Of a DNA stretch of 64,000 nt, positions 17,100 to 56,800 are shown one piece after another. Below the pieces are notes generated by a model, which saw only the letters and a list, made by a program, of their open reading frames with translations, ran no database searches and was not told where the DNA came from. The stretch covers positions 130,138,001 to 130,202,000 of the forward strand of contig JBMRGM010000035.1 of the NCBI GenBank assembly GCA_052327205.1, read 5' to 3'. The stretch is from Somniosus microcephalus. Lineage: Eukaryota. Position 1 is the first letter of the stretch; each line of letters begins with the position of its first letter. Made by a program: the position numbers and the translations under genes.

Positions 17100-17465
17100 A
17101 ACCCTTGGACCAATGGTTAATTTTCTCCAATTCTAGCACGGGTGCATGAGGCCAGTAAAAATCCCTTTTATTTTTGATCTTGTCACTTGGGTCAAGAATG
17201 TGACACCCATGTTTGTATTACCAAATCCAACTTCTTATACTGATGGGCAGATTGGCATACCAACAAAAACACAAGGGGCTAGCATTCAGATGACAGTTCT
17301 TGCTGACCGTCAAAGCATTGAAAGCGCCAAATGTAAAAGTGTCTTTTGCAAACTGCCGCTGTCTCCTGGCTGAGATCAGCTGCTTCAATCCCAACTGAAG
17401 GAATAAGCTTAGTGTGGCTCAGTAACACACTGTACAGTGCACCTGTTCACTGAATTAACGTCGGA
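17100..17465 (-). mobile_element. Old SINE, LF-SINE-like
   Basis: Reverse complement contains GCAGCTGATCTCAGCCAGGAGACAGCGGCAG after a tRNA-like head. Confidence 0.4.
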
Positions 17466-17469
17466 GGCA

Positions 17470-17971
17470 TTAGTTCATGGTGACTGTTTGATTTTTTGGA
17501 TTCAGAAATACAAAACTGAAGATAGGATAAATCCTGTCATGGAATTTCCGATCAGTCGAGTGGACTATGGAATCACCAGCGGATTTTCGTCAACCATTAC
17601 GTAAATCCTTATTTTTGGCAGTTCAACAAGTTTGACGGCGTTGCCAAAGGTCCTCGCCAAATATTTTTCTTTCTCCACATTCCACAGCAACACAGTGTAT
17701 AATCCACTGCTAGATAATTAACATAGCCATGTCTTCCATTTGTATGACTCTGCAGATACACCCACCAACCAGACAGATCCGCTCTCCAATTGCACCTCCC
17801 AATAATAACTTCCGGAGGTAAGCCCTTCAGCTTCCTTTACATGCCACGTGCTGAGGTGCATCTCCTGAGCATCCATGGGCTTCTGTGGCGCATTGTCCCA
17901 CGTGGTGCTGATCTGGTCTGCATTCACGGCGAATCGTGGCTCCGAGATGTACTCGTTGAATTTGACAGCAA
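17470..17971 (-). pseudogene. Terminal B30.2/PRY-SPRY exon of copy A
   Basis: Acceptor TTTTTCTAG, phase 1. Reads AVKFNEYISEPRFAV...GLTSGSYYWEVQLESGSVWLVGVSAES (compare GFTSGRHYWEV). TAA at 17718-17720, then GLYTVLLWN...PKIRIYV, a frameshift, and KFHDRIYPIF...TMN*. Confidence 0.88.
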
Positions 17972-19454
17972 CTAGAAAAATGGAAAGTAACAATAAATAT
18001 TGGCTGGTACCAACATTTTACAATCTCTTCCCATCTCTATGTCTATTTCCCTCTCCACACCACTGTCTCTCTCCCATCTCTGGCACTCCATCTATCTCTA
18101 ACTCTGCCTTTTTGTCCTGATTTCTATCTGTTCTAGCTCTCTGCCGGGAATGTTAACTTTGGGTAATCATGTAAAATGTGCGATATAATATTGAACGTCC
18201 CTTATACATCCCTCCCGATTATACCTTCTATCGAGCGTGGTGTTTTATGTGCAGCAAATTGGATATCGCCCAATTTGCACCATAGCCCAACGTAAAAATA
18301 ACTCCCTCTGGATGTCTCTCTATTTCCGTATCACTCTCTTGCTTTCTCTCTGCACGTGTTGTCCTCTTTCCATTTCTCCCTCTCCAGCGTTCTCCTTTTC
18401 TCTCTGACATTCTTTTTTCCATTTGTGCTCTGTCAATTCCGAAACTCGAAATATTAATAAGGGGGTGAAATTGGGCATGGGTAGCGATGGAAAATGGGCG
18501 GCTTTGTTTCGATCGCCTGATATACGCAGGGTCGATATTCAGTTCAATTCAATCAATAGAGCTGATTAGACCTGAATATCGATTATGTTGTATAACGGTC
18601 AGCAAATATGATTCCGCCTGTTTTACTTTACTGCCCATGTCCAATTTCACACCTTCTATATCCTAAGGTGATTTGACTTTGTTGATTTCTGTCTGGAGAA
18701 GTGAGTTCTGTGCAATGTGCTTGTCCCTTATTTTAAGGTTAGGTGCTGGTCAAGCTATTTCCTGCTCTGCATTTTGGTGCCAGAGCGATCAATTCTCATG
18801 GTTATCGCCAGACGTTAAATGGGTGGGTACGGATGGGCATCCCATTTTACACTGCACTTATTTTTCGTTTCTGTTTACTTCACTGGAACTAAAAATAGGG
18901 AGACGCTCAAAACCGGCTGTCGACTCGATATCGCTCGTTTTACGCTATCATACAAAGGCACGACCTACCGCACTGTTAATCTACCACCATCTGAATCGCT
19001 GCAATGCAGGGGTCAATTTTCACTCTGACTGATGAATTTCTACAAATTTGCTTCAGTGGCAACGGAAATCTAGCAGAATGTAGAACAGGCCGACCATCAT
19101 TTTTCCAGTACCATCTTTGTCTAGTCCACGGTGAAAGTGAAAATCCACCCCATACAAACACCCACCAGTATGCTTACATATTGGAAGCGGTTGTTCGAGA
19201 GTATACTGAAGGTGCCCACTTTTATGTTTTGGATGCTAAGGTATGAATATGGCCTGATATAATATGTAATGTGTATGATCTACTTTCATAGACAGTTCCT
19301 ACTGCATACTAAGCTTAATTCTGATCCTATATATGCCACAAGTTCATTGTGTAAAATGTTTCCCAATCAGAATCATAGTGAAGTCTTAATATGAGCTCAT
19401 TACCAAATCAAAACATTCAACATATGACGAATGGAACAGTCTATTCTCGTTTAC

Positions 19455-19472
19455 TTGAATTACTCTTCGGCT
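19455..19472 (-). CDS. Possible 18-nt microexon of copy A (KPKSNS)
   Basis: TTTAG|...|GTAAAC, phase 1-1, but a weak polypyrimidine tract. Confidence 0.3.
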
Positions 19473-19755
19473 CTAAATTAATTTGAATTAACCAATAATT
19501 TGAATTCCGAGAAACTGTCTGTATTCCCACTGGAAAGTTTGTCACTATATCACTGGAACTGGCACTTGAATTTGTGAGTTATTGTAAAATGGGCGATATT
19601 GGATCAGCTGCGCATTGCGGGAGATGCCACCAGTTGGCGGAACAGCGCCGGTCGCCGTTCATTCTACATTTCGTGATGGTAACGAGTGGCACAAACCACC
19701 ATAATTTCTACGTCTAAGATTCCTACTACCACCCATTACATGTCAAAACTCTTAC

Positions 19756-19782
19756 TTGTGGTATTCATTACTTTTCTCAGCC
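19756..19782 (-). CDS. Copy A 27-nt microexon (GLRKVMNTT)
   Basis: TTTATTCCAG|...|GTAAGA, phase 1-1. Confidence 0.75.
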
Positions 19783-19881
19783 CTGGAATAAACAAATAAT
19801 TAACAGAGTGGGGCAATTTTAACTTTTAGATGGCGTAAAGGGGCCTATTGCACAGCTCTCCCGATTTTTTTCAGTGGATTG

Positions 19882-20338
19882 CATAGCAGAGTACTTGGAA
19901 AACAGTGACAGGATTGGACAAAGTCAACATGGATTTACAAAAGGTAAATTATGCTTGACTAATCTGTTGGAATTTTTTGAGGATGTAACTGGTAGAATAG
20001 ATAAGGGAGAACCAGTGGATGTGGCGTATTTGGACTTTCAGAAGGCTTTCAATAAGGTCCCGCAATAGAGATTAGCATGCAAAGTTAAAGCACATGGGAT
20101 TGGAGGCAAGGTACAGACTTGGATAGAGAACTGGTTGGCGGACAAGAAGCAAAGAGTTGGAATAAGCAGGTCTTTTTCTGAGTGGCAGGCAGTGACTAGT
20201 GGGGTACCGCAGGGATCGGTGCTAGGACCCCAGCTATTCACAATATATATTGATGATCTACACGAGGGAACTAGATGTAATATCTCCAAGCTTGCAGATG
20301 ACACAAAGCTGGGTGGGCATGTGTGCTGTGAGGAGGAT
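19882..20338 (+). mobile_element. CR1 RT fragment fused to a truncated MITE
   Basis: Close match to ~3545-3998 (QHGFTKG...[10 protein letters not shown]...KLADDTKL). Confidence 0.9.
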
Positions 20339-21218
20339 GGCCTCTGTGGGTGGAGAGTTCCGCTTTCTGCAGAACCTTCGCCCGCTGAAATCACTTAACA
20401 ATCTTACGCCTGATCAAAGCAGGTGTAAGGCCTTCTTTTACCAGCATAAGAGGCTAAAAAGATTTTTTTAAATGTCACTCATTTAAAATTTAAAATTACT
20501 TTAAAAAAATAAGGTTATTTTTAGCCCCGTAAAAACTTTAATTTTTTTTTCAAAAAATTTAATTTTTGTTTAAAATATTTAACTTAATGTAATTGTAACT
20601 CATTTTAAAATGTGATGGTTTTTTCTAAGTTATTTAATGTTTTGATGTGTTTTTGGGCTGATCTCCATTTATACCTTTGACAGTTCTATCTGTCAAAAGT
20701 ATGAAGGAAAATTCCGTTCTCCTATTGGCTCGCCTGGCCCACGTGATCCCCAGGATGTTTGTGAACTGCATGCGCCCCTGGGATACGTGGGCCCTGCGCA
20801 TTTCAACTGTGGAGAGCCCCAGGATTGGAAGTGTCCGGACCTCGGGAGCCCTCAAGTAAGAGCGTAGATTTTTTTCTGATAGAAGGCATCCGCACGCAGG
20901 AAGCTTCCTATCGGAAATTACAATCCTGTATTTTTAAATTTGATCCCCATTCGTACTTTTGACAGATCTGTGCGTGGAGACGTGCCAAAAGTGTGAAGTG
21001 GGTTTCCCTTCTTTGATTGGTTCCCCATGGCCTTCATGATCCCAGGGCACTTGCGAACCTCATGTGCCCCTGGGATACCTGGGCCTCTGCGCATTTCGTA
21101 GAGCAGAGGCCCAGGATCGCAAGTCTCGGGGCCTATGGAGCCAGCAGGTAAGTGCGTAGATTTTTTTCCGATCGGAAGCATCCGCACGCAGGAAGCCTCC
21201 GATCCGAAATTCAGGGCC
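20339..21218. mobile_element. Two tandem partial family-A MITEs
   Basis: 3' halves similar to ~15950-16542; ends GATCCGAAATTCAGGGCC. Confidence 0.75.
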
Positions 21219-21243
21219 TACATATTTGGCTGTTTGGATTTAC

Positions 21244-21279
21244 CTGCAGCTTTCAGAATTTCATTCAAGTTTTCGATTT
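21244..21279 (-). CDS. Copy A 36-nt microexon (EIENLNEILKAA)
   Basis: GCTTTTCAG|...GCAG|GTAAAT, phase 1-1. Confidence 0.8.
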
Positions 21280-22657
21280 CTGAAAAGCGAACTAAAATTA
21301 ATGCCGGATATGATATTGATTCCAAACCTTTGATGACAATATTCTTATTCTACAGATTAGGACACGGATAGACGATAGAACTGCATGTGAATTGGCAAAT
21401 GGAGGTTCAAGATAGAAGAAAAGCAGACGACGACAATGAAAAGGTGAATCAGAGCAATTTACTGTCCAGCGAAAGCCTGTGCTGGCCCAAATTCAACTTG
21501 AAATACTTGCAGGATCTATCAATCACAATTTGAGACTGGTACATATTAGTGCAACGTTCCAGACTTAACCGGATGACAAATTTGTTAGTGTGCATTTGGC
21601 GAACATGTAGGTGTTTTTGAAGCTTGTCTAATTATTATTGGGACGTCGATGGTCGAGGTTAGTTTAATTTTGTATTTGTGTAAGAGGAACAATTGCAACT
21701 GAATAACATTTCATCGCCTTTGTTTCCAGAGCAAACACAATTAATGAATGGGTACTCGCTATGCAAGCTCAGAGCGAATGGGGCAGCAGTGGTATTACGT
21801 ATCCTAACTACTTTATTTCACAATGCATTTCCAATCTCACTAGGAATGACGAACAGAAAATCCCCAGGTCCACCATAATAGTTGCCAAATCGGTAAGCAC
21901 TGCGTTATGGAACCAAGAAAACAAGGATTGCGCCAGTAGAATTCAAAGCATTATTGCAGATAACCTGCCAAGGCTGCAGCTTGAGCGAGGGTCAACACTA
22001 TAGAGATAAACTAAAATGCCTTTATATGCCACTAAAACTAAAAAAAAACATATCACTTCACAATGTGTTAAAATAGATTTACACAGTAACATTATGAGTG
22101 CTACCTGCGTTGAGACACAGATTACTATCCCAATCATATTCTGCAGTTCCAGAGATTGGTAATTATTAACCTCGTCGCGTAAAACTTTGAACATTGGACA
22201 TTTTTATTTAAGTTTCAGTGCTCATTTATTGCTTCGATTGACATTCAAGCGATAACGGTATTACATCATGTCTGTTTTAGGCTTTTCAACACATGGAGAC
22301 ATATATGCAATCAAATCCGCATTGGACGCGTGAAATGAGTGCAAGTGCATCGGCTGCCATTTTGGATCTGACCATCGGGCAGGGCATATAACGGGCGTGC
22401 GCTGCGATACGGCCCATTTGGCGCTACTGCCAAAGAAGTATGACCATTGTAATATTTTGTTAAATACAAATGTTTAAAATATTAATGAGAGTAATCGCTT
22501 TTATATATTCCTTTGCAGAGTATTGTAGTAACAATGTAGCTGAAAATAATGCAAGGTTAGATTATAAATTACGAGGACTAATTTTGCATATTGATATTGA
22601 CCAATATTTAGGGATATTGCAATTGTAAAAATACAACTTTGTTTTTCTAACATTTAC

Positions 22658-22684
22658 CTTTCTCTTGGTCTCTGAGTTTTTTCT
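22658..22684 (-). CDS. Copy A 27-nt microexon (EKKLRDQEK)
   Basis: CCTGTATTAG|...GAAAG|GTAAAT, phase 1-1. Confidence 0.8.
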
Positions 22685-22883
22685 CTAATACAGGATAAGT
22701 GTTAATGACTTTTAGTAAACAGCAAATGTATTTGTTTCCTAACATGCATGAAACGAATCGAAGTAAACTCATCATAGGGTAAATCATGCTGTATGATGTG
22801 CAGTAGGGCTAATTAGCCATACTATCATATATTTTTAAACACAACTTTATGAATGAATAGAAACGCGATGGGGCAGATATTAT

Positions 22884-23618
22884 GGCCCAGAAATTCCGTT
22901 GGCAGCCCTCCCGCGGGCAGAGGGCTGCGATTTGGAAAAATCTCCGCCTGGACCGGAAGGACTCCCGGGAGGCAGAGAATTCCGTTGCTGTGCCTCTTCA
23001 AACTGCTGGTGTGCAGGGCACGCGTATCCTAGGGGCGCATGTAGTTCGCAGCATCCCTGGAATCACGTGGGCCATGGGAGCCAATCAGAGCAGGGAATCT
23101 CCATTCACAGATTTGACAGGAAGACCTGTCAAATCTATGAATAAAGATCAGCCCCAAAACATAAGTAAAACTTCAAATATTTTTTTTTAAATCACATTTT
23201 TAAAATGACTATACATTACATAAATTAACTATTTTAAACAAAAATTTAAATTTTTCAAAAAATAATTCACATTTTTAACGGGGCTAAAGATGAAGTTACC
23301 TTTCTTTAAAGTATTTTAAAATGATAAATCAGTGGGAAAATATTTTTATTTACTTTCTTCAACTCATAGCCTGGTAAAAGCAAGCCTTGCACCTGCTATT
23401 CTATGTGCAGCTGCTTCCGACTTACCTGGACAGAAGCAACTGTGAAAACAACGGAAGTTTCAGCTGTACGTGCTGCCGATTTGGCGCAGGCGTTTGACCT
23501 GATCGGAAGTTCCAGTTTCCAGCACATGCGCAGTGCATGCCTAATATCTGCATTTCTGTTGGCCCTACGGTTGAGTACACAGCGTGTACACACCCGTAGG
23601 GGACGGAATTTCTGGGCC
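22884..23618. mobile_element. Family-A MITE variant
   Basis: TIRs GGCCCAGAAATTCCGT and ACGGAATTTCTGGGCC. Confidence 0.8.
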
Positions 23619-24507
23619 ATTGTTCTGGGCGTAGCACGCGAACGATTCGAGAGGGCTCAGGATCGATGGAAATTAGTTCACCGCCCTCATTAGCGTTCGG
23701 GGCGAGCTGCTGGGACAGGTCCCGCCTCTACGGGCAGCTCGCCTCAGCAAACGCATCAATGTCAGACTGCCTGCATTAGCAGCAGAAGCCCTCGGGAATG
23801 TCCCGAAATGGGGGAATAGAGCCGGCTGTTGTGGGTGGACGGAGCGGGTTGGGGCGGGGAGGCGGGTGTCCCGCGCCTTACCGGATACAGGATTTTTTAC
23901 ACTTACCTATTGTTGGAGGCCTGGCTGCTGAGCAATCATTTGCTCCATATTTGCATCGCTCGAACTCAACTAATTTCTCAATAGGCTTCATTCTTTCTTT
24001 CTTCATTCCTATGTTTATTTTTTTTTCCCTCATTTTTCTTTTGCTTTCTTTCTAACTTTACTTCTTTCCTTCTCCCTTCATTTTTTAATTCTGTCTGTTT
24101 CTCTATGTATCTATGTATGTTGCAATCTATCTATCTATTTATCTCTCTGTCTATATCCATCACGATTTAAAAAATAATAATTTCTTTTTCTTTTCCCCCC
24201 TCATATTATTAACTTGATCCCTCCTCAAGAGGAAGAGCGGAGAATTGCAAGTTGATTAAGCTATAGAACTTCCCCTCGGTAACAGTGATTAGCTTTGCAT
24301 TGATGTTGTTATATTTTTGTCTCTCTGCAGAAAGCAAATACGCAGCAATGAACAGATCGTATTAGACATTGCTTCATATTCACACTAAACATTAAAACCA
24401 TGCTTCTGAGCTCCGACTACCCGTAAAGAATTGAATAAGAAATCGCCCATTTTTAAACTAAATGCTTCCATGAACATCTAAGTATTAAAGAAAGAAATGT
24501 ATCTCAC

Positions 24508-24543
24508 CTGCTTGTTCTAAAAAGTGGCTCAGTTTTTGAATCA
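24508..24543 (-). CDS. Copy A 36-nt microexon (VIQKLSHFLEQA)
   Basis: TTTGCTTTATTAG|...GCAG|GTGAGA, phase 1-1. Confidence 0.8.
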
Positions 24544-26029
24544 CTAATAAAGCAAAATTAAATCATTTCGGCTTTTATATTAAACTATATAGGCTACCAG
24601 CTTAGAATTTGAAGCTGTTTTTCTTTTCAGTCGAGATATTACAGCAACATTGCCAGTAACTGTAGAAATATTTTACTAACTATTTTTCTGAATAGTATAA
24701 CTGAATAAAAATGCATGTTTTTAAAACTTCAGCTAGCCAATATGATTCAAACTTTATTCTGCTTTGTCTGCCAGTATATGCAACGTACTTTAAATTTAGT
24801 TCCAGTAAATATTCATGTTAACCAACGCATGTTGTTCTTTGTAAATAACAAGCATGTGTGTAGCACGATCAGGAATAAAAAATCAACATTTTCAACTACA
24901 AAAATTTGAGAGACTGGGGATTAAAGAAACTAAATTATGACGCCCGTACTAATTATAGATACTAGACAGGCAGTTTGTAAAGTGGACTGTTGGATCACTT
25001 ATGTACTGCCAAATAAAACAAATGTCTCCCCAATAAGCATGCTAAAAAAGGTAAGGAATAAATAATAGAATTATGACAAAGGCAATGGCACATGGAATTA
25101 AAATACATTAAAATTAAAAGGCCAGCCTTTATATTATTCAATGGTGGAGCAAGCTCGAAGGGCTGAATGGCCTACTCCTTATCCTATTTCTTATTTCATA
25201 TGTTCTTATGAAGGCGGTCACCTGCAAACATAGATTGGTAGGTGGCAAAAAGCAAAGAGTAAAGGTTAATAGGGAAGTTAACTGTACTGGAAAAATGTTG
25301 CCATTGTTATTCCACAGTGGTCTGGGGCATGTATGATCCTTCTATATACTTAATTATTGTACACCGAACAATTGAGGGAACAATATAAAAATTGCTTTTG
25401 GCATCAGTTTGAATAATATACAAACTGTGACAAGGGTTGTGAAACGTTGCAAGAATACATAGAAGGATGAATAGATGGGTACCACTTTCAATTCCATGAA
25501 GAAGAATGCGAAGTAATGTGGCAAGTTAAGTAGATTAAGCCATAAAATGCCACATGCAATCTAAGGGTGTTGCATAACAAAAACAAGAAGATAATGTTGA
25601 ACTTGTGCAACATCTTAGTAAGGTCAAAGTGGGACTAGATGTCCGCGATTTCTACTTCAGTAAGCCTGGTGCAGTCTCAGCTTGCACTTGGGGAAGTTCT
25701 ATAGCCCAGCTGCCATTTTTGGAGAATAAGTGTGAACAGGCTGCTGTTGTTGGTGCCATTTGCCGGTGAAAGCTGTATTAAAGTCATATATCCAAAGTCA
25801 TTATGTGCAGATCGACATTCCATAGCATAGGAAGTTTATCAAAGTAATGGAAAGTTGCAAAAGATTCATCAGGATGTTACCATCTATTTCGAATTAGGTA
25901 AGAAGAGAAACTACAGCTGAAAAGATTATGGATAGAAATGATCAAGTACAGTCGTTCAAGATTCCAAAGCATTGCGTTGTGTAAAGTATAGACAGTTTCT
26001 ATTCATGTAGCAGATTGTTTCCACTGATG

Positions 26030-26558
26030 CCCTTGTTACCTCTTGACTTGAGTATTCCAATACTCTCGTGGCCAGCCTCCCATCTTCCCTACATAAACAT
26101 GAGCTCATCCAAAACTCTGCTGCCTGTATCCTAACACGCACCAAGTCGCATTCACCTATCACACCTGACCTACATTGGGTCCCCATTGACAATGCCTCGA
26201 TTTTAAAATTCTGATCCCTTTTTTCAAATTCCTCCAAGGTCCCGGCCCTCCTATCTCTGTAATCTCCTCCAGCCCTACAAACCTCCGAGAAGTCTGAGTA
26301 TCTCTAATCCTGGTGGATTTTATTCGCTGCACCATTGGTGGCCGTGCATAACGCTCTGTGAATTCCCTTCCTATACCTCTCCATCTCCTCCTTAAGATGC
26401 TCCATAAACCCTACCTCATTGAACAGCTTCTGGTCATCTGCCCTAATATCTCCTCATGTGGTTCAATGTCAAATTCTGTGTATTATCGCTCCTGTGAAGC
26501 GCCTTGGGCAGTTTACTACGTTAAAGGCGCTATATAAATGCACGTTGTTGTTTTTGAT
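26030..26558 (+). mobile_element. L2 LINE 3' fragment, left arm only
   Basis: ELIQNSAACILT-type sequence and tail GGCGCTATATAAATGCACGTTGTTG. The empty site is at ~62690 in the right arm. Confidence 0.85.
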
Positions 26559-26969
26559 GTTTTGTCAAACCGTAAGGACTGGGAACACATTTAAGATAAT
26601 GACAGCAAGATTTGAAAGGGGGCTTACAAAATTATTTACATAGAAGTTGGCCAGAATTGTTTTTATCTATTCCACACCCCGTTGGGTTCATATTTAATAT
26701 ATCAGCTTGGTAGGCACTATTGTCTATTTGGGGCAATTTTTCAGCAACTGTGAGATAAGCATTGACTGGGAGAATGCAGTGAGGACAATCTGTCGACGAG
26801 GCTCTCAGGCCACTAACTGAACCTGCCATTTATTTATTTATGCTCTCCGCCCACGTAGCTTCGATTAAAATCAGCCCTTTTGCATTCTATAATATCATAT
26901 AATTCTTCAAATAATATATCTCTTCCAAATAAAATATTTTATGAAGCGTTGAACATAATAAGCATTTAC

Positions 26970-26996
26970 CCGTGTCTTTCTGAATGACAGCTTTGT
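26970..26996 (-). CDS. Copy A 27-nt microexon (DKAVIQKDT)
   Basis: CCCCTTAACAG|...|GTAAAT; paralogue at 62211-62237. Confidence 0.85.
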
Positions 26997-27271
26997 CTGT
27001 TAAGGGGGAACATATTAGTTTATAACGTGCATCAAAGAATCTTGTGCTGAACTATGCTTTCACAAATTGCTTTTTGCAAGAGTAGATCCATAATGAGCAA
27101 AATGGCCCGAATATTTCACCAACAATGCATAGTTGCTAGCAAATACACAGAATAAGAAAAAAATTAATCGACTTCCGAATGTTTTCTTTAGCAAGTGAAA
27201 TGTAATGATTACCACAGTGCTATATTAATAACCATGTTGGATTATATATGAGTAATGTATTTCCTTCTCAC

Positions 27272-27307
27272 CTTTCTCAGACAGCGCTATTTCAGTAGTG
27301 CCTTTTT
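27272..27307 (-). CDS. Copy A 36-nt microexon (QKGTTEIALSEK)
   Basis: TGTTGTTTCAG|...GAAAG|GTGAGA; paralogue at 61894-61929. Confidence 0.85.
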
Positions 27308-30300
27308 CTGAAACAACAAAAACAAAACATTTCAGTTTCGTGTGCCTAGTTCAGTTTTCTGAGCTGCTCTATCTTTCAAGGCGATTTAATCTTGCCTCTT
27401 CTGCAAAAAAGCTCCATTTAGAGAGCTTTGCAGGTTAGTCCGTTCTAAAATTCCCCACGCCGAGTGGAAAAATGGAAGAAGTTGAGAAAGTAAGTCGTTT
27501 GCTGGTACTAAAGAAATATTAAATATTATAGCTCAATTGAAAGCAGAAAAGCTAGCTGCAAAATGTTGCATTGGATACTGGTGTTGGAAAGTTTATTACG
27601 TTTGTGTGAAATTACAAAGTGAAATGACGTTGGTGATAATAGTGGCTTAGAGACACTAGAGCAGTAGTGTTTTGACATTTGTTTATACGAGAAAAATACC
27701 TAACGAATGCTATGCTTAGCACATATATGTGAAGCACGCAAAGAGTGGTTTTACCACCTTTTGAAGCTGATTCAAAGTTCCTCAATTTACATTTTGTTCT
27801 AAGGGGAAAACGCAAGTAATCAGCAAACCGTAATTGCTCTCTGGCCGAAACAAACCTTGATAACAATAGTTTCAGCCGATTTCATGTCGGTGGTGTTACC
27901 TAGAGCAGATCAACTTTACGAGTTTGTTATCAACCCGTCGAAAAATAAATTTTCATGAAATGTGGGCAATGCAGTCTTAATCCCTTGGATTTTAGAAACA
28001 TAAAAATTGTAAGTAGAGACTCGTTTGTAACCCTGTCTATAGTTTTGAAGTACTGTAAATAATGGATTCGATTATCGATTTGAGAATTTGCATTGGTTAA
28101 TGAGAGCCTAGTCATGCCTAGGCTTTGACATACTTAGTGGAACTGGAGCAAGGAGGATTAAAAGCGTCGTGTAGAACTAGATACTTGAATCTTATAACAA
28201 GCGGAGTAGACATTTCAGAAGTGCACTGACCATAAAGCTTGGATGAACAACACATAAAACTTGGCAATTACACATAAAATGAGGAACAGCTTATCAGACA
28301 ACAGACGTGTCTTTCTGTTATAGATTCCTTTAATAAAGGAGACAGATTAGACAAACAAACAGCGTTATAACTAGTGCGGCTAATTGAATGGAGTGAGTGC
28401 CAATTGCGGACGATTCCAATTATATGCCTGCTGACGGGGAAAACAGCAGAGGGAATACTCAGAAGTCACCTTCCAGAATCAATGGAATTTTGGTTCGCAA
28501 CTTCGTTTCCGACACAACAAATGCAGCTATTTTGGTCATAAGAAGCTAGTATTTATATTAAATAATGATTAGGAGAACAAAAATATACAGGCAAATTGCA
28601 AACTTCCGGAGGGAACGGGTTCCGTCCTTAGACTTGGAACGTTAAGCATCACCAGAGCAGAGTGACCAAAGGAATCTCGGGCAGGGTCTATATTACGCTG
28701 GTGACTGGATCCGCCTCATTTTCCTTCCATTCAAATTAAGGAAAACCCTACAGTCTCTTCTTATCCAGGCCATGCTTAACGTCTAAACGATAAAGACGAA
28801 ATTATAGTCCTGAATAGAGTACAGTGAAGATAAGTGTAAAATGATTAGTATAGTAGATACTAAATGAAATCAAGAGCCCGATTTGAAAATGAGCGCTTCC
28901 ATATCGTGGGAGGGGGGAAGAGCTAGACTACAGTGTTCTAACGATCTCATGGTTGGAGTTCAATTGCGTTTTTGAACGAGCTGCTCACGCTTTCCAAAAG
29001 CAGCGTGCCCATGGAAAGTGCTGTAATTCGGGTGGCTCTAACGTTGAGCCCAGTCAACGAGCGGAGGGACGCGCATTGGGAGGGGGCGCATTCTTTGCGG
29101 CCAGGAAGAACAGATTATTTGAAAGTCCTTTTTTCTTTTCAAGTTTTTGCAGAGGCTTCAGATGGTGTCTTTAATTGGCTGAGTCTCTCAACGCCAAGTA
29201 GTAGGGTCCACCTGCCGGTACATTAAAATTGCACGGCGGTCCTATGGATATCACATGCCTCAGATTTGCATGGGTTAATGAGTATAGGGCCTGCTCGCCG
29301 TGAATGATGCGCCATCCATTTGAAGGTCCCTATGAAAAAGGGGAGCCCCCACGTCAGTGCAAAAGGGATGGGTAAAAACATTCTCATTTTCCTCACCCTA
29401 CCGCCCCGTTCCAACCCTACGGGGAAGAGAGGCGATTGGACATCGGCGTCAAAGAGTATGAATAATTATACAGCCTAGGTTAGGAAAAATATTTCAAACT
29501 GTCAGCCCGAAGCTAAGTGTCAGAAAGAGGAGCCAGCTTTATCTCTTTATCTGTACTATTTAGATAAGTCTAGAGCTTAACGTTGGTTTTATTCCTGTAC
29601 AAAGTATGGGATAGACCCATTTTGCAATACTTTATGAAGTTCCTGTCATTTTAGCATAGAATGCAGTTCTCTTTCAAAACCAAAAGCTTCAAGATAAATG
29701 GAAAGAAAATTCATGATCTCCCTTGCGATGAGCAACTGACAGCAGATTATATGACTTAAAGCTAAACAAGCTAATGCATTTGTCAAAACAACAAAGGAAT
29801 CTACTTTCAAAGCGTTAGAGAAACAATTTAATTGGCAGGGCCAAAGCAGCTAAAAAAGGAGACACAGATCTCCTATCCAGTAAATTTGTGAACTTCAATA
29901 ACTCAAAGGGGATCAACGCACACAGGACACCAGAAACACGAACGAACAAAGGTTTCGTACATGTCACTCAGTGCGGCAGCTATCCCTGTATAAATGGTGC
30001 AGTGAAATAAAGTACAACAGTTGCTGTCACTTATTTCTTCAGACCGGAATGGAAATGAGGCCACTGGGAAAATAAAATGTAACCATACTGGCTGCAATTA
30101 CTCGAAGGTTATCTTCTTCAATTAACATGTAGTGGACGAGGATGTGGTCAAATATTATTACAAAAGGGCAATTTTCAAATGCTGGTTAATATCTTAAAGT
30201 GTTCCGCATTAGTTTCAAAACAACCATAAACCAATGCGTTGCCTCATAATAACAACCTAAACAAATTCGTACTGAATGTTTAACTAATTAGAAACGAATG

Positions 30301-30311
30301 TTTTTGCTCAC

Positions 30312-30347
30312 GTATGCTTTTTAGGCTCTCCCTCAGATATTCCAGTT
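30312..30347 (-). CDS. Copy A 36-nt microexon (ELEYLRESLKSI)
   Basis: CTGCTTTTCAG|...|GTGAGC; the paralogue at 58887-58922 encodes the same peptide. Confidence 0.88.
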
Positions 30348-30893
30348 CTGAAAAGCAGATCAAAATAATTTTTATATATTTCACACTAATGGCTGAAAAG
30401 CAAATCATATTTTATATATTTCACACTAAATGGTTATAACATTATAATTCAATGGATGCCCCGAATAAAACGCAGAGGAGAGGTACAATAAGACCCATGC
30501 CTCAATCAGCATCATCATCATCCAGAATCGCGCTATAGCATTTTAATCTTGTGAGCGTACTGTTTGTATGTTTGTGAAAGGGTTGCAGTATAATTGCAGA
30601 ATCTGAAGAACGACCACGACATACTGTTTTGTTTACAGTGGTGTCCTGCAAAAGAGTCTTGGGTTTGCTATCTCGGACGAGGAAGGCATGGTGGGGATGG
30701 GACCACGAAAACTAGAGAAACAGAAACATCAGCAACGTTAGGAGTAAGAAACAATAAAAACAGAAATGGCCAGATGCAAGAGAAATTTGACAGCGCCATA
30801 TTTGAAACATCTTTTCAAATCAGTAAGTAAAGTCAGACACCTCTATTATGGCCTTAGAGTGCCGCCAACAATGCCCATTTTCGAAGTAGTCAC

Positions 30894-30920
30894 CTTTCTC
30901 TTGCAGACTGAGTTTATTTG
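30894..30920 (-). CDS. Copy A 27-nt microexon (ANKLSLQEK)
   Basis: TTCCTCAACAG|...GAAAG|GTGACT; paralogue at 53855-53881. Confidence 0.85.
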
Positions 30921-31207
30921 CTGTTGAGGAATAAAAAGTGATATAAATGCGCAGTATTGATGAGGTATGTATTCATGTTCAAACAGACATGAAATGAATT
31001 AAAGCAAGCCCTGTATGTAATGGAGTAATGTGGATGTATATTTGAATAATGATATTGCTGCAGAAAATATTGTATGCAACTCAGCCTTTTGTCCTTTATG
31101 CAATAATGGAATGCTGTTAAATTAAAGAGCCTCTTTGCAACAGAGTTAAACGCCCATAAAATATGTACATGAGTGTGCACAAGTTGCGAGCTATTTGTTT
31201 TTCTCAC

Positions 31208-31243
31208 CTTTCTCAGTTAGCATTCCAATGATGTTTTTCAGTT
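31208..31243 (-). CDS. Copy A 36-nt microexon (ELKNIIGMLTEK)
   Basis: TCATTCATTCAG|...GAAAG|GTGAGA; paralogue at 53515-53550. Confidence 0.85.
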
Positions 31244-31863
31244 CTGAATGAATGATCAAAAACTTGAGCTTTATTTTTCTACTGTGAATTCAGTTTGCTT
31301 CCACGTTTACTGCTTTCTTTCTTTCACTTTGTCCTTTAATAATTCCATATTCCTGTAGGCTGAAAATGATTACACGCAGTGCTACAGCTAATCTATCTAT
31401 ATGACGTTACTTTGTGCTTTATGGATTCGGTATGTTGGCTCAACAGTAAAGAACAGAACATTAAACAATAACTCGAACCTAACGCGCCCGGCATGACCTG
31501 GTGTTTTCGGATCAGACACCTATTTTACAGTGTAAGCGGATAATTTGAATTTCGAGCGATAATGCAAACTGGATGATATCGAACCAGCTGGCCGTTGTCA
31601 AATCGTTCGCTTTACACTATCGCTAAAAAATCTCAGATTTTACCCTCTATTGACTAAAAATTAAACGAAAATCTGGTAGCCTGTAAAATACTGGCAGATC
31701 CACTACGGCCTGTTTTCCACGCGGCAGTACAACTAAAAATTCACCCCAACATTTTACTTAACACACGCTGGGGTAGAGCATGGAACATTCCTACTCTCAT
31801 TGGCTGAGCTATGCTTTAGATAAACGGTCAAGCCATCTCCTGAGCTCTTCAGTTTTTATAATT

Positions 31864-32784
31864 GGCCTGAATTTTCCGATCGGAGGCTTCCTGCGGGCGG
31901 ATGCCTTCGATCAGAAAAAATCTATGCAATTACCTGCTGGCTCCGTAGTTCCCGAGACTTCCGATCCTGGGCTTCTCCACTACGAAATGCGCAGAGGCCA
32001 AGGTATCCCAGGGGCGCATGCGGGTCGCAAGCGTCCCTGGGATTACGTGGGACATGGGGAACCAATCAAAGAAGGGAATCCCCCTTCACACTTTTGACAG
32101 GCCTGTTCGCACAGATCTGTCAAAAGTATGAAAGGGGATCACATTTAAAAATACAGTTAAGCATAATTCTTTTTTAAATCACTTTTAAAATTAGTTAAAA
32201 ACTTGAGCTTTATTTTTCTACTGTGAATTCAGTTTGCTTCCACGTGTACTGCTTTCTTTCTTTCACTTTGTCCTTTAATAATTCCATATTCCTGTAGGCT
32301 GAAAATGATTACACGCAGTGCTACAGCTAATCTATCTATATGACGTTACTTTGTGCTTTGTGGATTCGGTATGTTGGCTCAACAGTAAAGAACAGAACAT
32401 TAAACAACAACTCGAACCTTTAAATAAATAAAATTCTTGAAAGAAATAACTAAAGTTTTTTACGGGGCTAAAAATAAACTTACCTTTTTAAAAGTATAAA
32501 TGAATGAAAACAACATTCTGTATTTTTTTAAACTCTTATGCTGGTAAAACCAGGCATAAGATTTGTAAAGGATTTCAGCGGGCGGAAGTTGTGCAGAACG
32601 CTCAACTCTGCCTGCGGAGGCCCTTTTCCCGGGCAGGCAGATAATCAGTCAAGAGGATCCTTGAAAGGTCGCAAGTGCCGATTTGTAGCGCATGCGCTTC
32701 GAATGCCTGAAACTGGCACTTGCCCGGCCCCTACGCGTGCGTACACACCTCGTACGCATCCGTGGGGGTCGGAAAATCCGGCCC
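31864..32784. mobile_element. Family-A MITE carrying a captured 223-bp host segment, left arm only
   Basis: TIRs GGCCTGAATTTTCCGA and TCGGAAAATCCGGCCC with ATT on both flanks; 32197-32419 duplicates 31258-31480. Confidence 0.85.
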
Positions 32785-32999
32785 ATTCTGCCACTCCATA
32801 TGCATATATATATTCTGCTACCAATTAGGAACGTTCAGTTGTTTCAAAGTGAAAATAATAATCTCCTTACGTCCCAGTGGAGAAAGGCGTCTAGTGTTAT
32901 GGTTTAAATGGATTCGTGCTCGATGTTCATGTAAGTGATTTCAATGCACACAGAAACTTGTTTTTCTTTGGTAAGTGTTCCATTTTTTCAAGAATGTAC

Positions 33000-33026
33000 C
33001 TTTCTCTTTTTCACGCAGCTTGCTTT
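33000..33026 (-). CDS. Copy A 27-nt microexon (ESKLREKEK)
   Basis: TTCCCCTATCAG|...GAAAG|GTACAT; paralogue at 52609-52635. Confidence 0.85.
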
Positions 33027-33340
33027 CTGATAGGGGAAGCAACACATATTTAAAATGAACATTGTAAACAAACAACGTGAGTTATTTTGCGTATTATGGA
33101 ATACGTCTATTCATGCTTTACATTAAGTATTGCGACATTGAGTAATCCGTTTCAAATTAGCGCAAACTGTGAATATTGCAGCACTTACACAGGGCTGTCT
33201 TTTGTTACACGACTCTTGATGAAAAGTGCTAAAAGCTGGTGCTGGTATTAGAAAACAACAGTTTTCATTATTATAATAGAGAAAATATGTTACGAGTGCA
33301 GCAATGTATTTTAATGGCTTCTTGTTTTTTTATTTCTTAC

Positions 33341-33376
33341 CTGCACGTCTTAAAGTTTCCACCAGTTTTGCTATTT
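33341..33376 (-). CDS. Copy A 36-nt microexon (EIAKLVETLRRA)
   Basis: TTTGCATTACAG|...GCAG|GTAAGA; paralogue at 52276-52311. Confidence 0.85.
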
Positions 33377-35634: not shown

Positions 35635-36560
35635 TATGCCAGCAGAAGATGGTTTCAGACTGAAAAGAGCAGAAACATCTTGATATTGAGCTGGTCAACA
35701 TTAAAGCATGGGAGAAAGTTGATTCAATTAATTAAATCAGAATAGAATGAACAACATCGCTTATTAAAAGTATATTAGCGAAAGTATTCAGAAAGGAGCA
35801 TTAAATAAACATACCTGCGTTCTTCCAATGAACCCTGGATAAAAATGTGTGCAATCTGTATCCCGCCGATTCTTCTTCTGAAATGTATAAAATAAGAAAA
35901 GATTCTGCTCGAGTGAGTAATCAGATTAGGACTTTGTGGTGCATCACATTTTCCAAAGTTGAATACAAGTAGACTGTTTCTTTCAGGAAGGAGGCTGTTG
36001 ACTGCATCAAGTTGCGGATGATAACATTCATGGTCACTTCAATTGTGTTGCAATTGATATAATTCCAGAAATGTTGACACATTGTGTCTCCATCTATTAT
36101 CATTTCAAAAATGCTCTCTCAGCAGTTTTGATGGCAGAGGGGTTTAAGTCTGATAGTTTTGTTTTTGTTTGTCGCAAAATATTCCTGATATTTGTACCTC
36201 TGAGTATTCTGCAACTGTAAACGTATCAGGTTAACTGTACGTGAAATGTGAATCTGTACTGGACTTGAATATTATTTTTAAGACCACATAGCAGCTTTCT
36301 CGCAGCCCTGGACAGAATCGCCTCACAGGTGATCGCCTCCTCACCGCCAGCATCTACAATCCTCATTTATCGTGCACATGCTTTCTTGCGTTTCTCTACT
36401 TTTTAAAACAGCGATTAAAGTGTATTCTTCCACTTGAGATCAAATTTGACAGTCAAATTTGGTAGAGCTAGTGGCTTTCTTTTGAACAATACTTCTGGGC
36501 AAAAAAATCATTCAGTATTACCTCTGTTTATTCCTGTTTCTATAAAGTATCTTTTGCGCC
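35635..36560 (-). pseudogene. Possible heavily decayed NACHT (NLR) coding segment; mirrored at ~48700-49640 (+)
   Basis: Ordered motif-like pieces across frameshifts: LNDFF/LNDIF, ARKLL, YRFTF..SCR, MIIDG, VIIRNLM..LLPE, FIQGSLEER, LFSL..FCWHI. No Walker A; spacing imperfect. Confidence 0.3.
35815..35877 (-). CDS. Copy A candidate 63-nt exon (xEESAGYRLHTFLSRVHWKNA)
   Basis: Long pyrimidine tract ...CATTTCAG| and CAG|GTATGT, phase 1-1 and open. The right-arm equivalent has stops and has lost the GT. Confidence 0.35.
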
Positions 36561-50866: not shown

Positions 50867-53800
50867 GTAATTGCATACAGGAAACAAGTAAAATTCACTG
50901 GAAATCTGATATGTGAAAGAAAGTGTAAATGGGGTAAACTTTCAACTTGCGACCAGGGTTAAAACTGGCATTGGGGATGAATGGAAATAACAATCCAATA
51001 GTTTCTCGCATGATGATCCAGGAGGACGGTGAAGTTTAACTTCACCGGGGAGAAAACGGAGTAGCGGATCGGCTGTCATAGTGGCCCAGATATTCCGATC
51101 GCAGGCCTCCTGCGGGTGGAGGACTGCGATCTGGAAAAATCTGCGCCCTGACCTGAGGGCTCCTGTGAGGCGCACAATTCTGCTGCTGGGCCTCACCAAA
51201 CTTCCGGATTGCAGGGCCCACGTATCCCAGAGGCGCAGGTAGTTCGCAGCCTCCCTGGGATCACGTGGGCCATGGGGAGCCAATCAGAGAAGGGAATCTC
51301 CCTTCATACATTTGACCTGTCAAATATATGAATGAAGATCACCCCAAAACATAGTAAAACTTCAAATAAATTGAATAAAAAATCACATTTTTTAAATGAC
51401 TTGAAAGTCCAATGAATTAACTATTTTAAAAAAAACTTTTAATTTTTGAAAAAAATAATTTAAGTTTTTTACGGGACTAAAAATAAACTTACCTTTTCTT
51501 AAAGTATTTTTAAATGATAAATCAGTGGAAAAAAATTATTTCTTACCTTTTTCAACTCTTATCCTGGCAAAAGCAGGCCTTACGCCTGGTTTTACCAGGC
51601 GCAAGAATTGTAAGTGTTTCCTGCGGGCGGAGGGTCTCCAAAAAGCAGAACTCTCCGCCCGCAGAGGCCCTTCTTGACAGATCAAAAATGCCGGTTTCCA
51701 GCGCATGGGCAGTGCATGCCTGACACCGGCATTTCTGATGTCCCTCTGGGTGGGTAAACAGCGCGTACCCACCCATAGGGATCGCAATATACGGCCCTAT
51801 ATTTTGCCTTAAAAGGAAAATCAGGCGGGGTGTATAACAAACGGCCGTTGGGCTGCGTCCCGTTCTGCACCTCTGTCGAAATTGAATTTTACCCCACACA
51901 ACCCAGTTTCACGACCAGGCAGCAATTTAAACATGTAACCTATGCACCAACCATGCTTTGACATACATTCATTGCATTGATTTGTTATGAGGTCCTATAA
52001 CAGGCACCACAACAGTTTAATAGTCATCCAGGCACATTATCAGATTGGCACCGAGATGTAAAACAAGCATTGCGAATTAACGCCTTTTATACAAACTCTC
52101 TGATTTTAATTTCCATATTTTGTAAATAAATCGCTTACAACTCACTGTTCTCAATCTGGGGCAATGAAAATCGTGGATTAAGTATCACGCCCTTCGACCA
52201 ATAGAAATAAATATTAAAACGTTAAACGTGAAAATAATTGATATAACTACCTAGTGTCATATAAGTGCATTGCAGAAAGCGCAACACTAGTAGAAAGTTT
52301 AAAAATTGCTGGTAAGAACTAACAAATCGGTAGCCATTAAAAAAGACTGTTATGCTCTTAACATATTTTTCGCCATTATAATAATGAAAATGTTGTTTTC
52401 TAAAACTATTACCAGGTGTTAGCTCGTGTTAACAAAACTCCTGTAACAAAAGACAGTCCTGTATAGATGCTACAATATTCACAGTTTGTGCTAATTGGAA
52501 ACTCAGTACGCAATGTTGCATCATTTAACATATCATGAATAGATGTATTCCACAATGCGCAAAATAACTCACATTTATCGCTTTCATTTTTGTTGTTTGC
52601 TATACCAGAACGCATGCTTAAAGAAAAAGAGGAAGGTATACTCTTTAGCACATTCACCAACGTGAACCAATCCCTGCGTGTTCTCGAATCACTTAGCAAA
52701 ATGCGACCAAGAATACATTTGTGCTACAACACGAAGTCTTTTTCTATATCGGGCCTTATGGAGATACACATAGTCACTTTAATACAACTGAACGTTCCTA
52801 AATTGGTACCAGAAATACAATTGGAGAGTGGCAGAGTCCATTTATAAAAACTGAAGTGCTCCTCAGATGGCTTGGCCATCTATATAAAGCATAGCTCAGC
52901 CAATGAGAGCAGTTAAGTTCCAGGTTCTATCCCAGTATGTGTTGAGTGATATGATGGGGTGAATTTTCAAATTAACGGCCACGTGGAAAACAGGTGGCCG
53001 AGGTCTGCCCGCGATTTACACGCCGTTCAATTTAGTTGAACTTGTAGTCAATGAAGGGTATAATCTAAGGGGATAATGTTGTCTTCTAGCAACAGTGAAA
53101 AACTGCGATATCGGATTGCCCACCTAGTATACATCTCTCCCGATTTTCCTTTCTATTGCAGTACAATACACAGCTGATCCGACAACGTCCAGCTTACATT
53201 ATCGTCCAAAGTCAATATTATCCGTGGCACTGTAAAATGGGTGTATGGTCTGAAATCGCCCGTTCCTGCCGGGAGGGTTAGGTGAGAGTTACAGCTTAAT
53301 GTTCTGTTCTTTACTGTTGAGTCAAAATACCGAAACCATAGCGCACAACGCAATGTCATATAGATAGACTAGCTGCAGTACTGCAAGTTTTAATTTCCAC
53401 TCTGCAGGAATATCGGGTCATTAAAGTACAACACGTAAAAAGAAAGCAGTAAATGGAGAAACAAACTGAATTCACGGTAGATAATTAAACTCAAGTTTTT
53501 GATCTTTCATTCAGAATTGAAAAAAATAATTGAAACTCTAACTGATAAAGGTGAGTATAACAAATAGCTAGTATTTACTTTAACATTTGTGAAAACTTTT
53601 ATACATATTTAATGGGATTTAACGCTGCTTCAAGGAGGCTCTTTAAATTAATAAAATGTCTATTGCATAAATGGCAAAGGAGTGCGTTCAATACAGTATT
53701 TTCTGTAACAATTTCATTCAAATATATAATCACTGTATTAGCTGTAGGTTATGCAATCCACGTTATTCCATTAATTCGTTTCATGTCAGTTGGAAAATGT

Positions 53801-56800
53801 ATATATTCCCTGCCAATACTGTGCATTTATTGCTCTTTTATTATTCATCAACAGAAAATTTACTCAGTCTGCAAGAGAAAGGTGTCTACTTCAAAAATGG
53901 GTTGTGTTGGTTATACTGTAAGGCCATAACAGAGGTTTCTGCCTTTAGTTACCAGGTCGTAAATGTCTTGTTTTGCACACTTTGTACAAAACTAATAACT
54001 TGCAGGACAACGGAGCATTACAGTTTAAGTCTTTTAATAAGCATTAGGTCTGATCTTACTCATAACACCACCATGGGGAAAAACATGGCGTTAGGACCCC
54101 TAGCCTGGGTCTTCAAACAATAGTAGTCCTTACAGATGCCTGCAGGCCAATGACAACTCAGCATGTGATCACATGTGAATATAATAGGTATTCCTTACAG
54201 ATGCCTGCGGGCCAATGATAATTCAATATGCAAATGTGACATCCCCTTTCTTTTAAAAGAAAAATGTTATGCATTACTTTTAAACCTTTCTTCTACATAA
54301 TGTTCTCGGTAGCATAAACATATAAGTAAACTCAGCATTTAACTAGCACTGAAAACATCTCAACGTTTAAATAACGATGTAGTTTTTTTTTAGGGCAGCG
54401 ATCCGCCTACACCCTTTGACAGTACACAAGTCAAGGATAACTCTAGGCTTGACCTCTCGTCCCGACCTTGTGTGGTATGGAACTGAGCATGCTCCTGAAT
54501 CGGTCAACAATGCAGGTTCAGGTTTAGGTTCAGGTAAATATGATGTGTTTTGTGTATTGCTCTGTTCATCACACTCTGTTGAACTGATCCTCTCGTCGGA
54601 ATGACGGTGTTGTTCCTTGGTGTTCAGGCGGTGCCTGTGATTGCAGCGGTACACCTGTCCTTCTGGGGTGTGGATGTGATACGATCACTCAGTGTCAGCT
54701 GGCTGGATGACGACTGCTGGCTTCCAGTAGTCATGCTCCTGGATTCTGATGGATTCTCCATTGTGCAGCGACGGCAGTAGTCTAGCTCACCTGTCATCGT
54801 ATCGCTTTTGGTGTTGCTGTCTCTGTACATGTTTTGCATGCACTTGCTTGCAGGTGACGACCTCTGGCTGCAGCTGCTGGTTGGTGCTTGGAAGGATTGC
54901 GCGAAGTCTGTGGCTCATCAACAGCTGTGCTGGTGACTTCAAGTTGGCAACTGGAGTGTTGCGGTACTCAAGGAGACTGATGTAGGGGTCTCTGTTGTCT
55001 GCTTTGGCTTTGTCCATGAGTGTTTCTGCAATCTGGACAGTTTTTACAGCACGGCCATTACTTTGAGGGTAATGTGGGTTTGATGTGACATGTGTGAAAT
55101 CCCATGCCTTGGCAAATGACTCAAACTCTTTTGATTTGTATTGGGGGCCATTGCCTGAGACTAAAGTTCCTACCATGTCATGCCTGGCAAAGGCTGCCTT
55201 TAGCTTGTGGATCACAGCTGCAGATGTGGTGCTGTGAAGCTTGTCCAGTTCAAAAAACCTGCTCTAGTAATCAACAGTCACTATGTAGTCCTCGTTGTTC
55301 CATGTGCACAGATCCGTTGCCGCGACCTGCCAGGGCCTGTCTGGGATACGGTGAGGTATCATGGGCTCTTTGACATTTGCTGGGCGGTGTTCTAGGCAAA
55401 TGGAACATTTTCCGACAATGTCCTCAATGTGTTTGCACATTCCGGGCCAAAACATAAATTCACGTGCTCTTTGTTTGCATTTTTCTATACCCATATGTCC
55501 AGCAAGAATTTTTGTCAACATCTCTTCTCTGAGACTGGTAGGAATGGTGATTTTCTCCCGTTTGAAGACGATTCTGTTGTTTTGTGACTGTTCATCTCTG
55601 TGGTTCCAGAATTCAGATATGCTCTGAGGGCATTTCCTCCTTTCCTCAGGCCATCCTTCATGTATGACCTTGCTCAGCAATGTGAGTTGTGCATCTTTCT
55701 CTGTTCTTGCTCGGATCTCCTTCAGTTTTGTGTCACTCACAGGTAAGCTGTTGTAAACCATGTGCACCTGCACATCCATGCCTTCACTGCGGCTGCTGTC
55801 CTGGTAGCTAAGAGACTTTCTGGAGAGTGTGTCTGCGACAGGAATGTCTTTGCCTGGACGGTGAATGATTGTGAAGTCGTACTTCTGTAGCTGAAGGATC
55901 ATTCTCTGTAGCCTTGGTGGGGCTGCAGCTAGTGGTTTCCTCATGATTGACTCAAGGGGCTTGTGGTCGTATTCCACAATGACTTGTCGGCCATAGACAT
56001 ACTGGTGGAAACGCTTACATCCAATCAGAATTGCATATAGCTCTTTCTTGATTTGAGCATAGTTGATTCCACTGTCTGTGAGAGACCTGGAAGCGTAGCC
56101 AATGGGCTTTCCTTCTTGCAGTAATACTGCACCTAGTCCATACTTTGATGTGTCCACTTGAAGTCTCAGCTCTTTGTTGGGATCGAAATAGGCAAGAGCT
56201 GGTTCTGGTTCTCTGGTGATTAGGTGTTTCATTTTGTGAAATGCTGTGTCATGCTGTTTGTCCCACAGGAACTCATTGCATTGTTTGAGCAACTGACGCA
56301 TGGGTGCATTGATTTCGGAGAGGCTTGGGGCAAACTTGGCTGAATAGTTAACCATTCCTAGTACTGTCTCTCGCTCTGTGCGGTTCTTCGGCGGCTCCAC
56401 CTTCTTGATGGTGGAGATTTTCTCTGGATCCGGCTTAATGCCATCAGTTGAGAGGCGATGCCCGAAATAACTGATCTTGGTGGATCCGACTATGCTTTTC
56501 TCGGGGATGAGCCAGATACCTTTCTCCCGTGATCTTTGTAGTATCACACGGAGGTTCCTGTCATGTTCCTCTCTATTCCTGCCATAGATGAGGATGTCAT
56601 CTACGATTGTGACTACTCCGTCAAGGCCTTCATATGTTTTGTCGATCTTCCACTGGAATTCATCCTGAGCTGAGATAAGACCAAATGGTAAACGCAGAAA
56701 TCGGTAGCGGTCAAATGGTGTGTTGAACGTTGTTAGCTTAGATGACTCTTCCGTGAGCTTGATAGCCCAGTATCCTGATCGTGCGTCCATTACACTGAAG

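Follow-up and report, generated by a model that had tools for sequence, protein, structure and literature searches.

Phase-1 micro-exons encoding a predicted coiled-coil rod in the shark Somniosus microcephalus: a short, probably inactivated copy and its long paralogue in a B30.2 family

The 64,000-nucleotide (nt) stretch of the 6.4-Gb genome of the shark Somniosus microcephalus analyzed here, hereafter the window (assembly GCA_052327205.1, contig JBMRGM010000035.1, abbreviated C35, positions 130138001-130202000), holds two genes of one family that sit head to head around 43.6 kb. The gene on the minus strand, which we call the short copy, consists of eleven micro-exons (19756-33376) with sizes, in transcript order, of 36, 27, 36, 27, 36, 36, 27, 36, 27, 36 and 27 nt, followed by a broken terminal exon of the PRY-SPRY (B30.2) type; the other, the long paralogue, is inverted and begins at 52276 (Table 1). 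From sequence comparisons, we consider it reasonably probable that the eleven segments are conserved phase-1 micro-exons encoding a predicted coiled-coil rod, that the short copy was likely shortened by deletion and probably inactivated recently, and that it belongs to a cartilaginous-fish family whose products would be soluble rods ending in B30.2.

Each of the eleven micro-exons is bounded by AG and GT and is of phase 1-1, hence symmetric, and together they give 351 nt and 116 codons without a stop. All of this agrees with the exon order and symmetry proposed in a preliminary description of the locus. The peptide pattern that it gave for the 36-nt exons, a Glu followed by [IL]xx[LI]xxxL, is more limited: the hydrophobic part fits five of the six, exon 6 does not fit, and exon 8 starts with Val rather than Glu. 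The endings it noted are present, EK in three of the five 27-nt exons and GAGAAAG in 5 of all 11. Eight of the eleven score at least 17 bits, the usual cut-off of a splice-plus-composition exon model trained on 42 exons of other genes of the family. A further 27-nt AG..GT stretch at 33235-33209 was rejected as an exon (weak donor, stop codon in one paralogue). Sequence lying just 5' of exon 3, without the exon itself, is present as a 223-bp direct duplicate (31258-31480 and 32197-32419; 98.7% identical).

Homologues of exons 1-10 occur in three paralogues: the inverted gene from 52276, a gene at C35:129.39-129.41 Mb (plus strand) and one at 130.04-130.10 Mb (minus strand). The AG, the GT and the open frame are kept in 39 of 39 exon copies examined across the four genes; exon 10 of the fourth copy, located separately, is additional to these 39. 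Exon identity among copies is 82-87%, and that of intron blocks is ~67-78%. Because splice sites and frame persist in every copy while the introns have diverged to this extent, the micro-exons are not products of chance; the comparison of the four copies shows that they are under purifying selection. The ratio of non-synonymous to synonymous change (dN/dS) is 0.31, 0.43 and 0.42 for the short copy against the three paralogues and 0.41, 0.48 and 0.72 for the remaining pairs. A partial tandem duplicate of the 5' region also lies at C35:129370309-129380636, in which the first micro-exon is 1 nt short and the second is absent.

Table 1. Features of the short copy and of the start of the long paralogue, in window positions
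Feature	Position	Strand	Basis
Micro-exon 1, 36 nt, starter type	33376-33341	-	AG/GT, phase 1-1, paralogue homologues
Micro-exon 2, 27 nt, partner type	33026-33000	-	AG/GT, phase 1-1, paralogue homologues
Micro-exon 3, 36 nt	31243-31208	-	AG/GT, phase 1-1, paralogue homologues
Micro-exon 4, 27 nt	30920-30894	-	AG/GT, phase 1-1, paralogue homologues
Micro-exon 5, 36 nt; closes first heptad register	30347-30312	-	AG/GT, phase 1-1, paralogue homologues
Likely decayed 27-nt partner exon, 196 nt past exon 5	30115-30089	-	best AG..GT candidate of the intron, 8.7 bits
Micro-exon 6, 36 nt; polar first half, at register break (putative hinge)	27307-27272	-	
Micro-exon 7, 27 nt	26996-26970	-	AG/GT, phase 1-1, paralogue homologues
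Micro-exon 8, 36 nt	24543-24508	-	AG/GT, phase 1-1, paralogue homologues
Micro-exon 9, 27 nt	22684-22658	-	AG/GT, phase 1-1, paralogue homologues
Micro-exon 10, 36 nt; last one common to the 5' part of long paralogues	21279-21244	-	
Repeat-rich junction, similarity switch from intron 10 to terminal intron (putative large deletion)	20300-21220		
Micro-exon 11, 27 nt; homologous to the exon preceding B30.2 in long paralogues	19782-19756	-	
Last exon, divergent PRY-SPRY (B30.2), broken	17971-17470	-	weak SPRY match, E 0.018; alignment to paralogues
Conserved upstream element, possible promoter or 5' exon; frames not consistently open	36130-35815	-	
First seven micro-exons of the inverted long paralogue (52276, 52609, 53515, 53855, 58887, 61894, 62211)	52276-62237	+	

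The long paralogue extends over ~512 kb, of which ~500 kb lie past the window, and ends at an intact B30.2 exon at C35:130702275. On its strand, 110 non-overlapping exons score at least 17 bits, as against two on the opposite strand; at 15 bits the matches are 124 and 7. The count of ~110 will include a few false exons and lack some real ones. Sixty-six of them are of 27 nt, 28 of 36 nt and 16 of other sizes, 21 nt occurring once in the 110. When joined they give 1066 codons with zero stops and a proline content of 0.3%, and 35 of 49 segments of this sequence have their periodicity peak at 3.4-3.7 residues (mean of shuffled sequences, 9.8). Two further copies are of intermediate size, with at least 33 micro-exons at 130.10-129.92 Mb (minus strand) and at least 32 in an older paralogue at 128.49-128.63 Mb. 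The exon number in the family thus ranges from 11 in the short copy through these two to ~110.

The exons of the long paralogue follow a simple grammar. If a starter is defined as any 36-nt exon, or a 27-nt exon with a hydrophobic residue at position 2, and a partner as a 27-nt exon with a hydrophobic residue at position 4, the two types alternate in 56 of the 64 neighbor pairs in which both members can be classed (30 of the 110 exons remain unclassed); shuffled orders give 49%, and none of 10000 reached the observed value. A 5.7-kb repeat, 98.3% identical, has recently duplicated one 36+27 pair, and larger blocks of exons are duplicated at 86-92% identity. The growth of the stalk by tandem duplication of a two-exon unit, as had been suggested from the short copy, is therefore real. 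That this unit is a module of 21 residues (three heptads) is only partly so: the 36+27 unit exists and keeps the register, but 27+27 units of 18 residues (11+7) are also common, and among the 109 size transitions 27-27 is the commonest (33), followed by 36-27 (24) and 27-36 (23). The unit has two lengths, 21 or 18 residues. Three heptads, and a hendecad plus a heptad, are both accepted coiled-coil periodicities. A starter of either 36 or 27 nt, with hydrophobic residues at positions 2, 5 and 9, joined to a 27-nt partner with one at position 4 would encode either 21 (7+7+7) or 18 (11+7) residues, and both units would be compatible with a continuous coiled coil.

In the short copy the heptad register is clearest in exons 1-5, where Ile or Leu occupies all eight a-positions and the best period is 3.47, which was matched by none of 2000 shuffles; the coiled-coil propensity that the preliminary description expected is thus present. 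Beyond the step at which one 36-nt exon directly follows another, the hydrophobic stripe shifts from a to f. Insertion of nine dummy residues at this step restores a single register, with the power at period 3.5 rising from 0.56 to 2.09, and inserts of 2, 6 or 13 residues do so about equally. The step had been described as either a register break or the site of an overlooked 27-nt exon. A scan for AG-N27-GT in 27308-30311 and 58923-61893 found no live exon, the best candidates scoring 8.7 and 8.8 bits against the 17 or more that are typical, and a live exon there is rejected. What stands is a register shift of one 27-nt exon's worth together with a candidate remnant. The latter (Table 1) opens like the partner exons, and its 196-nt distance from exon 5 is near the shortest 36-to-27 spacing seen (203 nt); its splice sites are weak or lost in all four copies, and one copy has a stop codon. 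Scored with a profile of 27-nt exon bodies, it ranks 7th of 2977 in the short copy and 44th of 2944, 405th of 4400 and 120th of 10698 in the paralogues. The step most likely reflects the loss of one 27-nt exon, of which this is the decayed remnant. We infer that one partner exon was lost in the common ancestor, before the four copies diverged, and that the resulting 36-36 step would act as a break in the register.

At its 3' end the short copy is both truncated and damaged. Its similarity to the long paralogues stops 24 nt past exon 10 and, beyond an interval containing repeats, picks up again in their terminal intron; the switch was placed at 21220-20690. Because the later exon types that it lacks are present in the older paralogue, which is shared with rays, the short copy has most likely lost about 100 exons by deletion. 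Its B30.2 exon has a nonsense codon at codon 84, a 19-nt deletion and a 1-nt deletion, both deletions shifting the frame. A genome search with this exon gave 70 matches, and the best four of those outside the window are likewise on C35. Two of these four are open and above the Pfam SPRY cut-off; a frameshift lies close to the end of the 129.86-Mb copy, and the copy at 129.92 Mb stops at codon 12. Intact micro-exons stand alongside a damaged B30.2 in two further paralogues. Most of the 70 B30.2-like matches fall in a large cluster of TRIM type at C35:107-167 Mb.

Among proteins, the closest relatives come from sharks and rays. An unrooted tree of 18 B30.2 rows, which included no butyrophilins and left out the frameshifted 129.92-Mb copy, unites the short copy, the long gene, the 129.86-Mb copy and a bamboo-shark protein in one clade (100/99), beside which stand the older gene, ray and catshark proteins and three exons of a second contig, C32; the B30.2 of the family is placed on a separate branch (100/99) from those TRIM-type sequences that the tree contains. 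Upstream of two of these C32 exons there are 2 and 6 micro-exons (C32:2676001-2716000 and 5451001-5491000), and upstream of the third (1.90 Mb) none was scored by the model. A further plus-strand series of micro-exons lies at C35:128708356-128778206 and 129308598-129348554, two stretches in which no B30.2 was found; it may be another gene, or may run on into the gene at 129.39-129.86 Mb.

Three RefSeq proteins, XP_038672306 (the catshark Scyliorhinus canicula), XP_069775384 (the electric ray Narcine bancroftii) and XP_043533988 (the bamboo shark Chiloscyllium plagiosum), fall in the same B30.2 clades and have matching micro-exon peptides; at residue 22 the catshark model, for example, has a match to micro-exon 1 of the older paralogue. 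The models are of only 316-460 amino acids, and by Pfam they have only PRY/SPRY. The close relatives among 1.84 billion representative proteins are likewise of 101-451 amino acids, those scanned having SPRY only, and no model of a 1000-residue form is found among the close database matches. Atlas matches to SPRY clusters of 1277 and 1579 amino acids (0.92 and 0.88) could not be tied to the shark family. Literature searches, which covered open-licence papers by title and the opening of the abstract, turned up no description of this family.

Several known systems resemble it in part. The chicken BG genes have many 21-nt heptad exons, IgV and transmembrane domains and alternatively spliced tail exons in a family that expands and contracts; a long presumed coiled coil built from many tiny repeated exons, a tandem family and a variable tail length are the points in common (PMC4046983, PMC8813856). 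BG differs in its 21-nt exons, its IgV and transmembrane parts and its lack of B30.2, whereas the shark family has 27/36-nt pairs and a B30.2 end, with no Ig or transmembrane segment found. The butyrophilins (BTN1A1, BTN2A, BTN3A, BTNL) have very short heptad exons right before the terminal B30.2 exon, and for BTN3A the skipping of single heptad exons and a BTN3A2 without B30.2 are reported (PMC6790196); a variable heptad number is also mentioned for the butyrophilins of cartilaginous fish (PMC12841164). Butyrophilins, however, have IgV, IgC and transmembrane domains and few heptad exons, whereas the shark genes have 11 to ~110 and no ectodomain was found. The PRY-SPRY TRIM proteins (TRIM39/A33-like) combine, like the predicted rods, a soluble coiled coil with B30.2, many B30.2 exons of TRIM type lie on the same contig, and RefSeq names the relatives after TRIM39/A33-like proteins; Pfam scans of these relatives, however, gave no RING, B-box or TRIM_CC match. 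The guinea pig enterophilins are cytosolic proteins with an extended leucine zipper plus B30.2, and the likeness is one of architecture; the enterophilins are mammalian, strictly heptad and butyrophilin-derived. An interaction of enterophilin-1 with SNX1 is reported (PMC13749957).

We call the predicted rods soluble because no Ig or transmembrane exon was found and because of the gene models of relatives. No Ig, RING or B-box motif was present in any genomic region examined, and Pfam matches among 81 upstream open reading frames (77 of 81 low-copy ones, plus four from the window) were none for the Ig family and one for reverse transcriptase. The conserved upstream element of Table 1 recurs upstream of another family gene; exon candidates of 63 and 20 nt ending at 35815 have inconsistent frames and a donor that the long paralogue has lost. 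Two ORF-like stretches (36900-36200 and 38920-38780) were rejected as coding (many frame-breaking indels across copies, no Pfam match). At 39018-38960 (minus strand) there is a 19-codon hydrophobic stretch that resembles a signal peptide and begins with ATG, and after it comes a donor site that is mutated; the ATG is kept in four of five copies, and the frame is closed early in the other copies. This last stretch is one of the arguments for viewing the micro-exons as the cytoplasmic tail of a membrane receptor, butyrophilin- or BG-like, with its signal, Ig and transmembrane exons either decayed or located a long way upstream. The layout of short heptad exons before B30.2 is that of butyrophilins (PMC6790196, PMC4046983), and one relative has been automatically named butyrophilin-like. 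We nonetheless think a receptor unlikely: the paralogues have no open frame through the signal-like stretch, frame-breaking indels abound in the upstream blocks, Ig motifs and Pfam Ig matches are absent from the regions examined, the head-to-head arrangement leaves ~10 kb per gene, and the close database relatives are without Ig or RING domains. Another alternative concerns how rod length is set. According to the preliminary description, pairs of exons would be skipped together and the stalk tuned by splicing in steps of three heptads, which the symmetry of all exons and the register-preserving 36+27 pair would permit; published reports describe heptad-exon skipping in macaque BTN3A (PMC6790196) and alternatively spliced cytoplasmic exons in chicken BG (PMC4046983). 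The ten annotated isoforms of the three relatives (two bamboo shark, five electric ray, three catshark), which are gene models in which the exon boundaries of the differences were deduced from size and peptide match, show four internal differences of 9, 9, 9 and 6 residues, none of 21 or 18. These blocks are apparently single-exon-sized and would break the register. The remaining differences are N-terminal; one, a catshark isoform without the first 18 residues, could be two exons or another start. In two RNA runs carrying the same species label (~24% and ~31% of the respective run examined, tissues unspecified), no read covered 17200-19867 or 27205-31206 and the short copy had no GT-AG joint, and none of the sequence records listed as holding the window stretch is recorded as RNA. 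The members of a pair are 0.2-14 kb apart with no coupling mechanism evident, the B30.2 head of the short copy is broken, and genomic changes already account for the ten-fold range of lengths. Paired skipping is thus very doubtful; changes in rod length appear to come from gene duplication and deletion instead.

The more serious question is whether the short copy is dead. It may still be alive as a headless coiled coil which keeps the shared N-terminal rod, pairs with its paralogues and reduces or redirects their complement of B30.2 heads, by analogy with BTN3A2 as a partner of BTN3A1. Its micro-exons have no lesion in 348 coding and 44 splice nt, where ~6.8 would be expected if the whole branch were neutral (0.089 changes per site), and changes in its lineage are five synonymous to four non-synonymous. 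If both parts of the gene had died together, the absence of micro-exon lesions given three in B30.2 would have P = 0.064. The two other paralogues with damaged B30.2 and intact micro-exons point the same way, as does the position of the stop in the last exon; a stop there usually does not trigger mRNA decay. The test is marginal, however, recent death would also produce this pattern, the short copy has a mutation in a candidate upstream donor near 38946, and neither reads in the two RNA runs nor a start exon were found. We regard a live headless product as possible, at a fairly low probability, and the short copy as probably a deletion-shortened and recently dead member of the family. Several observations weigh against this preferred account as a whole. 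A live headless product would account for the lesion pattern almost equally well; neither the short copy nor the long paralogue yielded a start exon; and the two RNA runs had zero depth also on the intact B30.2 exon of the long paralogue, their reads falling on repeats only. That the 512-kb series of exons forms one transcript is our inference, and the region holds 1000 N. The starter and partner classes were defined on the same data in which their alternation was counted, and duplicated neighbors are not independent. Exons 6-11 taken alone show no significant heptad periodicity (294 of 2000 shuffles), and the remnant exon scores weakly in two of the four copies.

Around the start of the long paralogue there are also mobile sequences. 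Its intron 4 contains an insertion resembling a long terminal repeat retrotransposon (53950-58480), whose minus-strand ORF of 735 amino acids (55264-57471) matches reverse transcriptase, RNase H and integrase zinc-binding domains. A plus-strand ORF of 632 amino acids, from window position 63043 to L018:938, has a gag-type aspartyl protease and switches at its end to a lysine-rich stretch, which we take to be RalBP1-like and perhaps a captured mRNA fragment; it gave no Pfam RhoGAP match.

On our reading of a family of soluble rods, the products would oligomerize through their coiled coils and serve as spacers of fixed length for the B30.2 heads (if fully helical, ~160 nm in the long gene and about 17 nm in the short copy). 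The length would be set mainly by genomic duplication and deletion of blocks of exons under the constraint of register. The ligands of B30.2 heads in general are proteins or metabolites, often in an immune context. Butyrophilins and chicken BG already show the principle of a coiled coil split over very small symmetric exons that precede or replace B30.2; the shark version differs in the 27/36-nt code of starters and partners, the size of half a megabase, ~110 exons and ~1070 residues, and the apparent lack of an ectodomain. Database models capture only its short forms. The family offers a clean case of how helical register constrains exon duplication, and points to hidden micro-exon genes in the B30.2 clusters of cartilaginous fish. 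Tentatively, and as a conjecture that we hold loosely, sharks and rays may have a largely unannotated set of B30.2 sensors or tethers in the form of rods, ~15 to 160 nm in length and built from up to more than 100 micro-exons in a starter/partner grammar, in which headless copies such as the short one could be selected as partners that tune the number of heads per rod.

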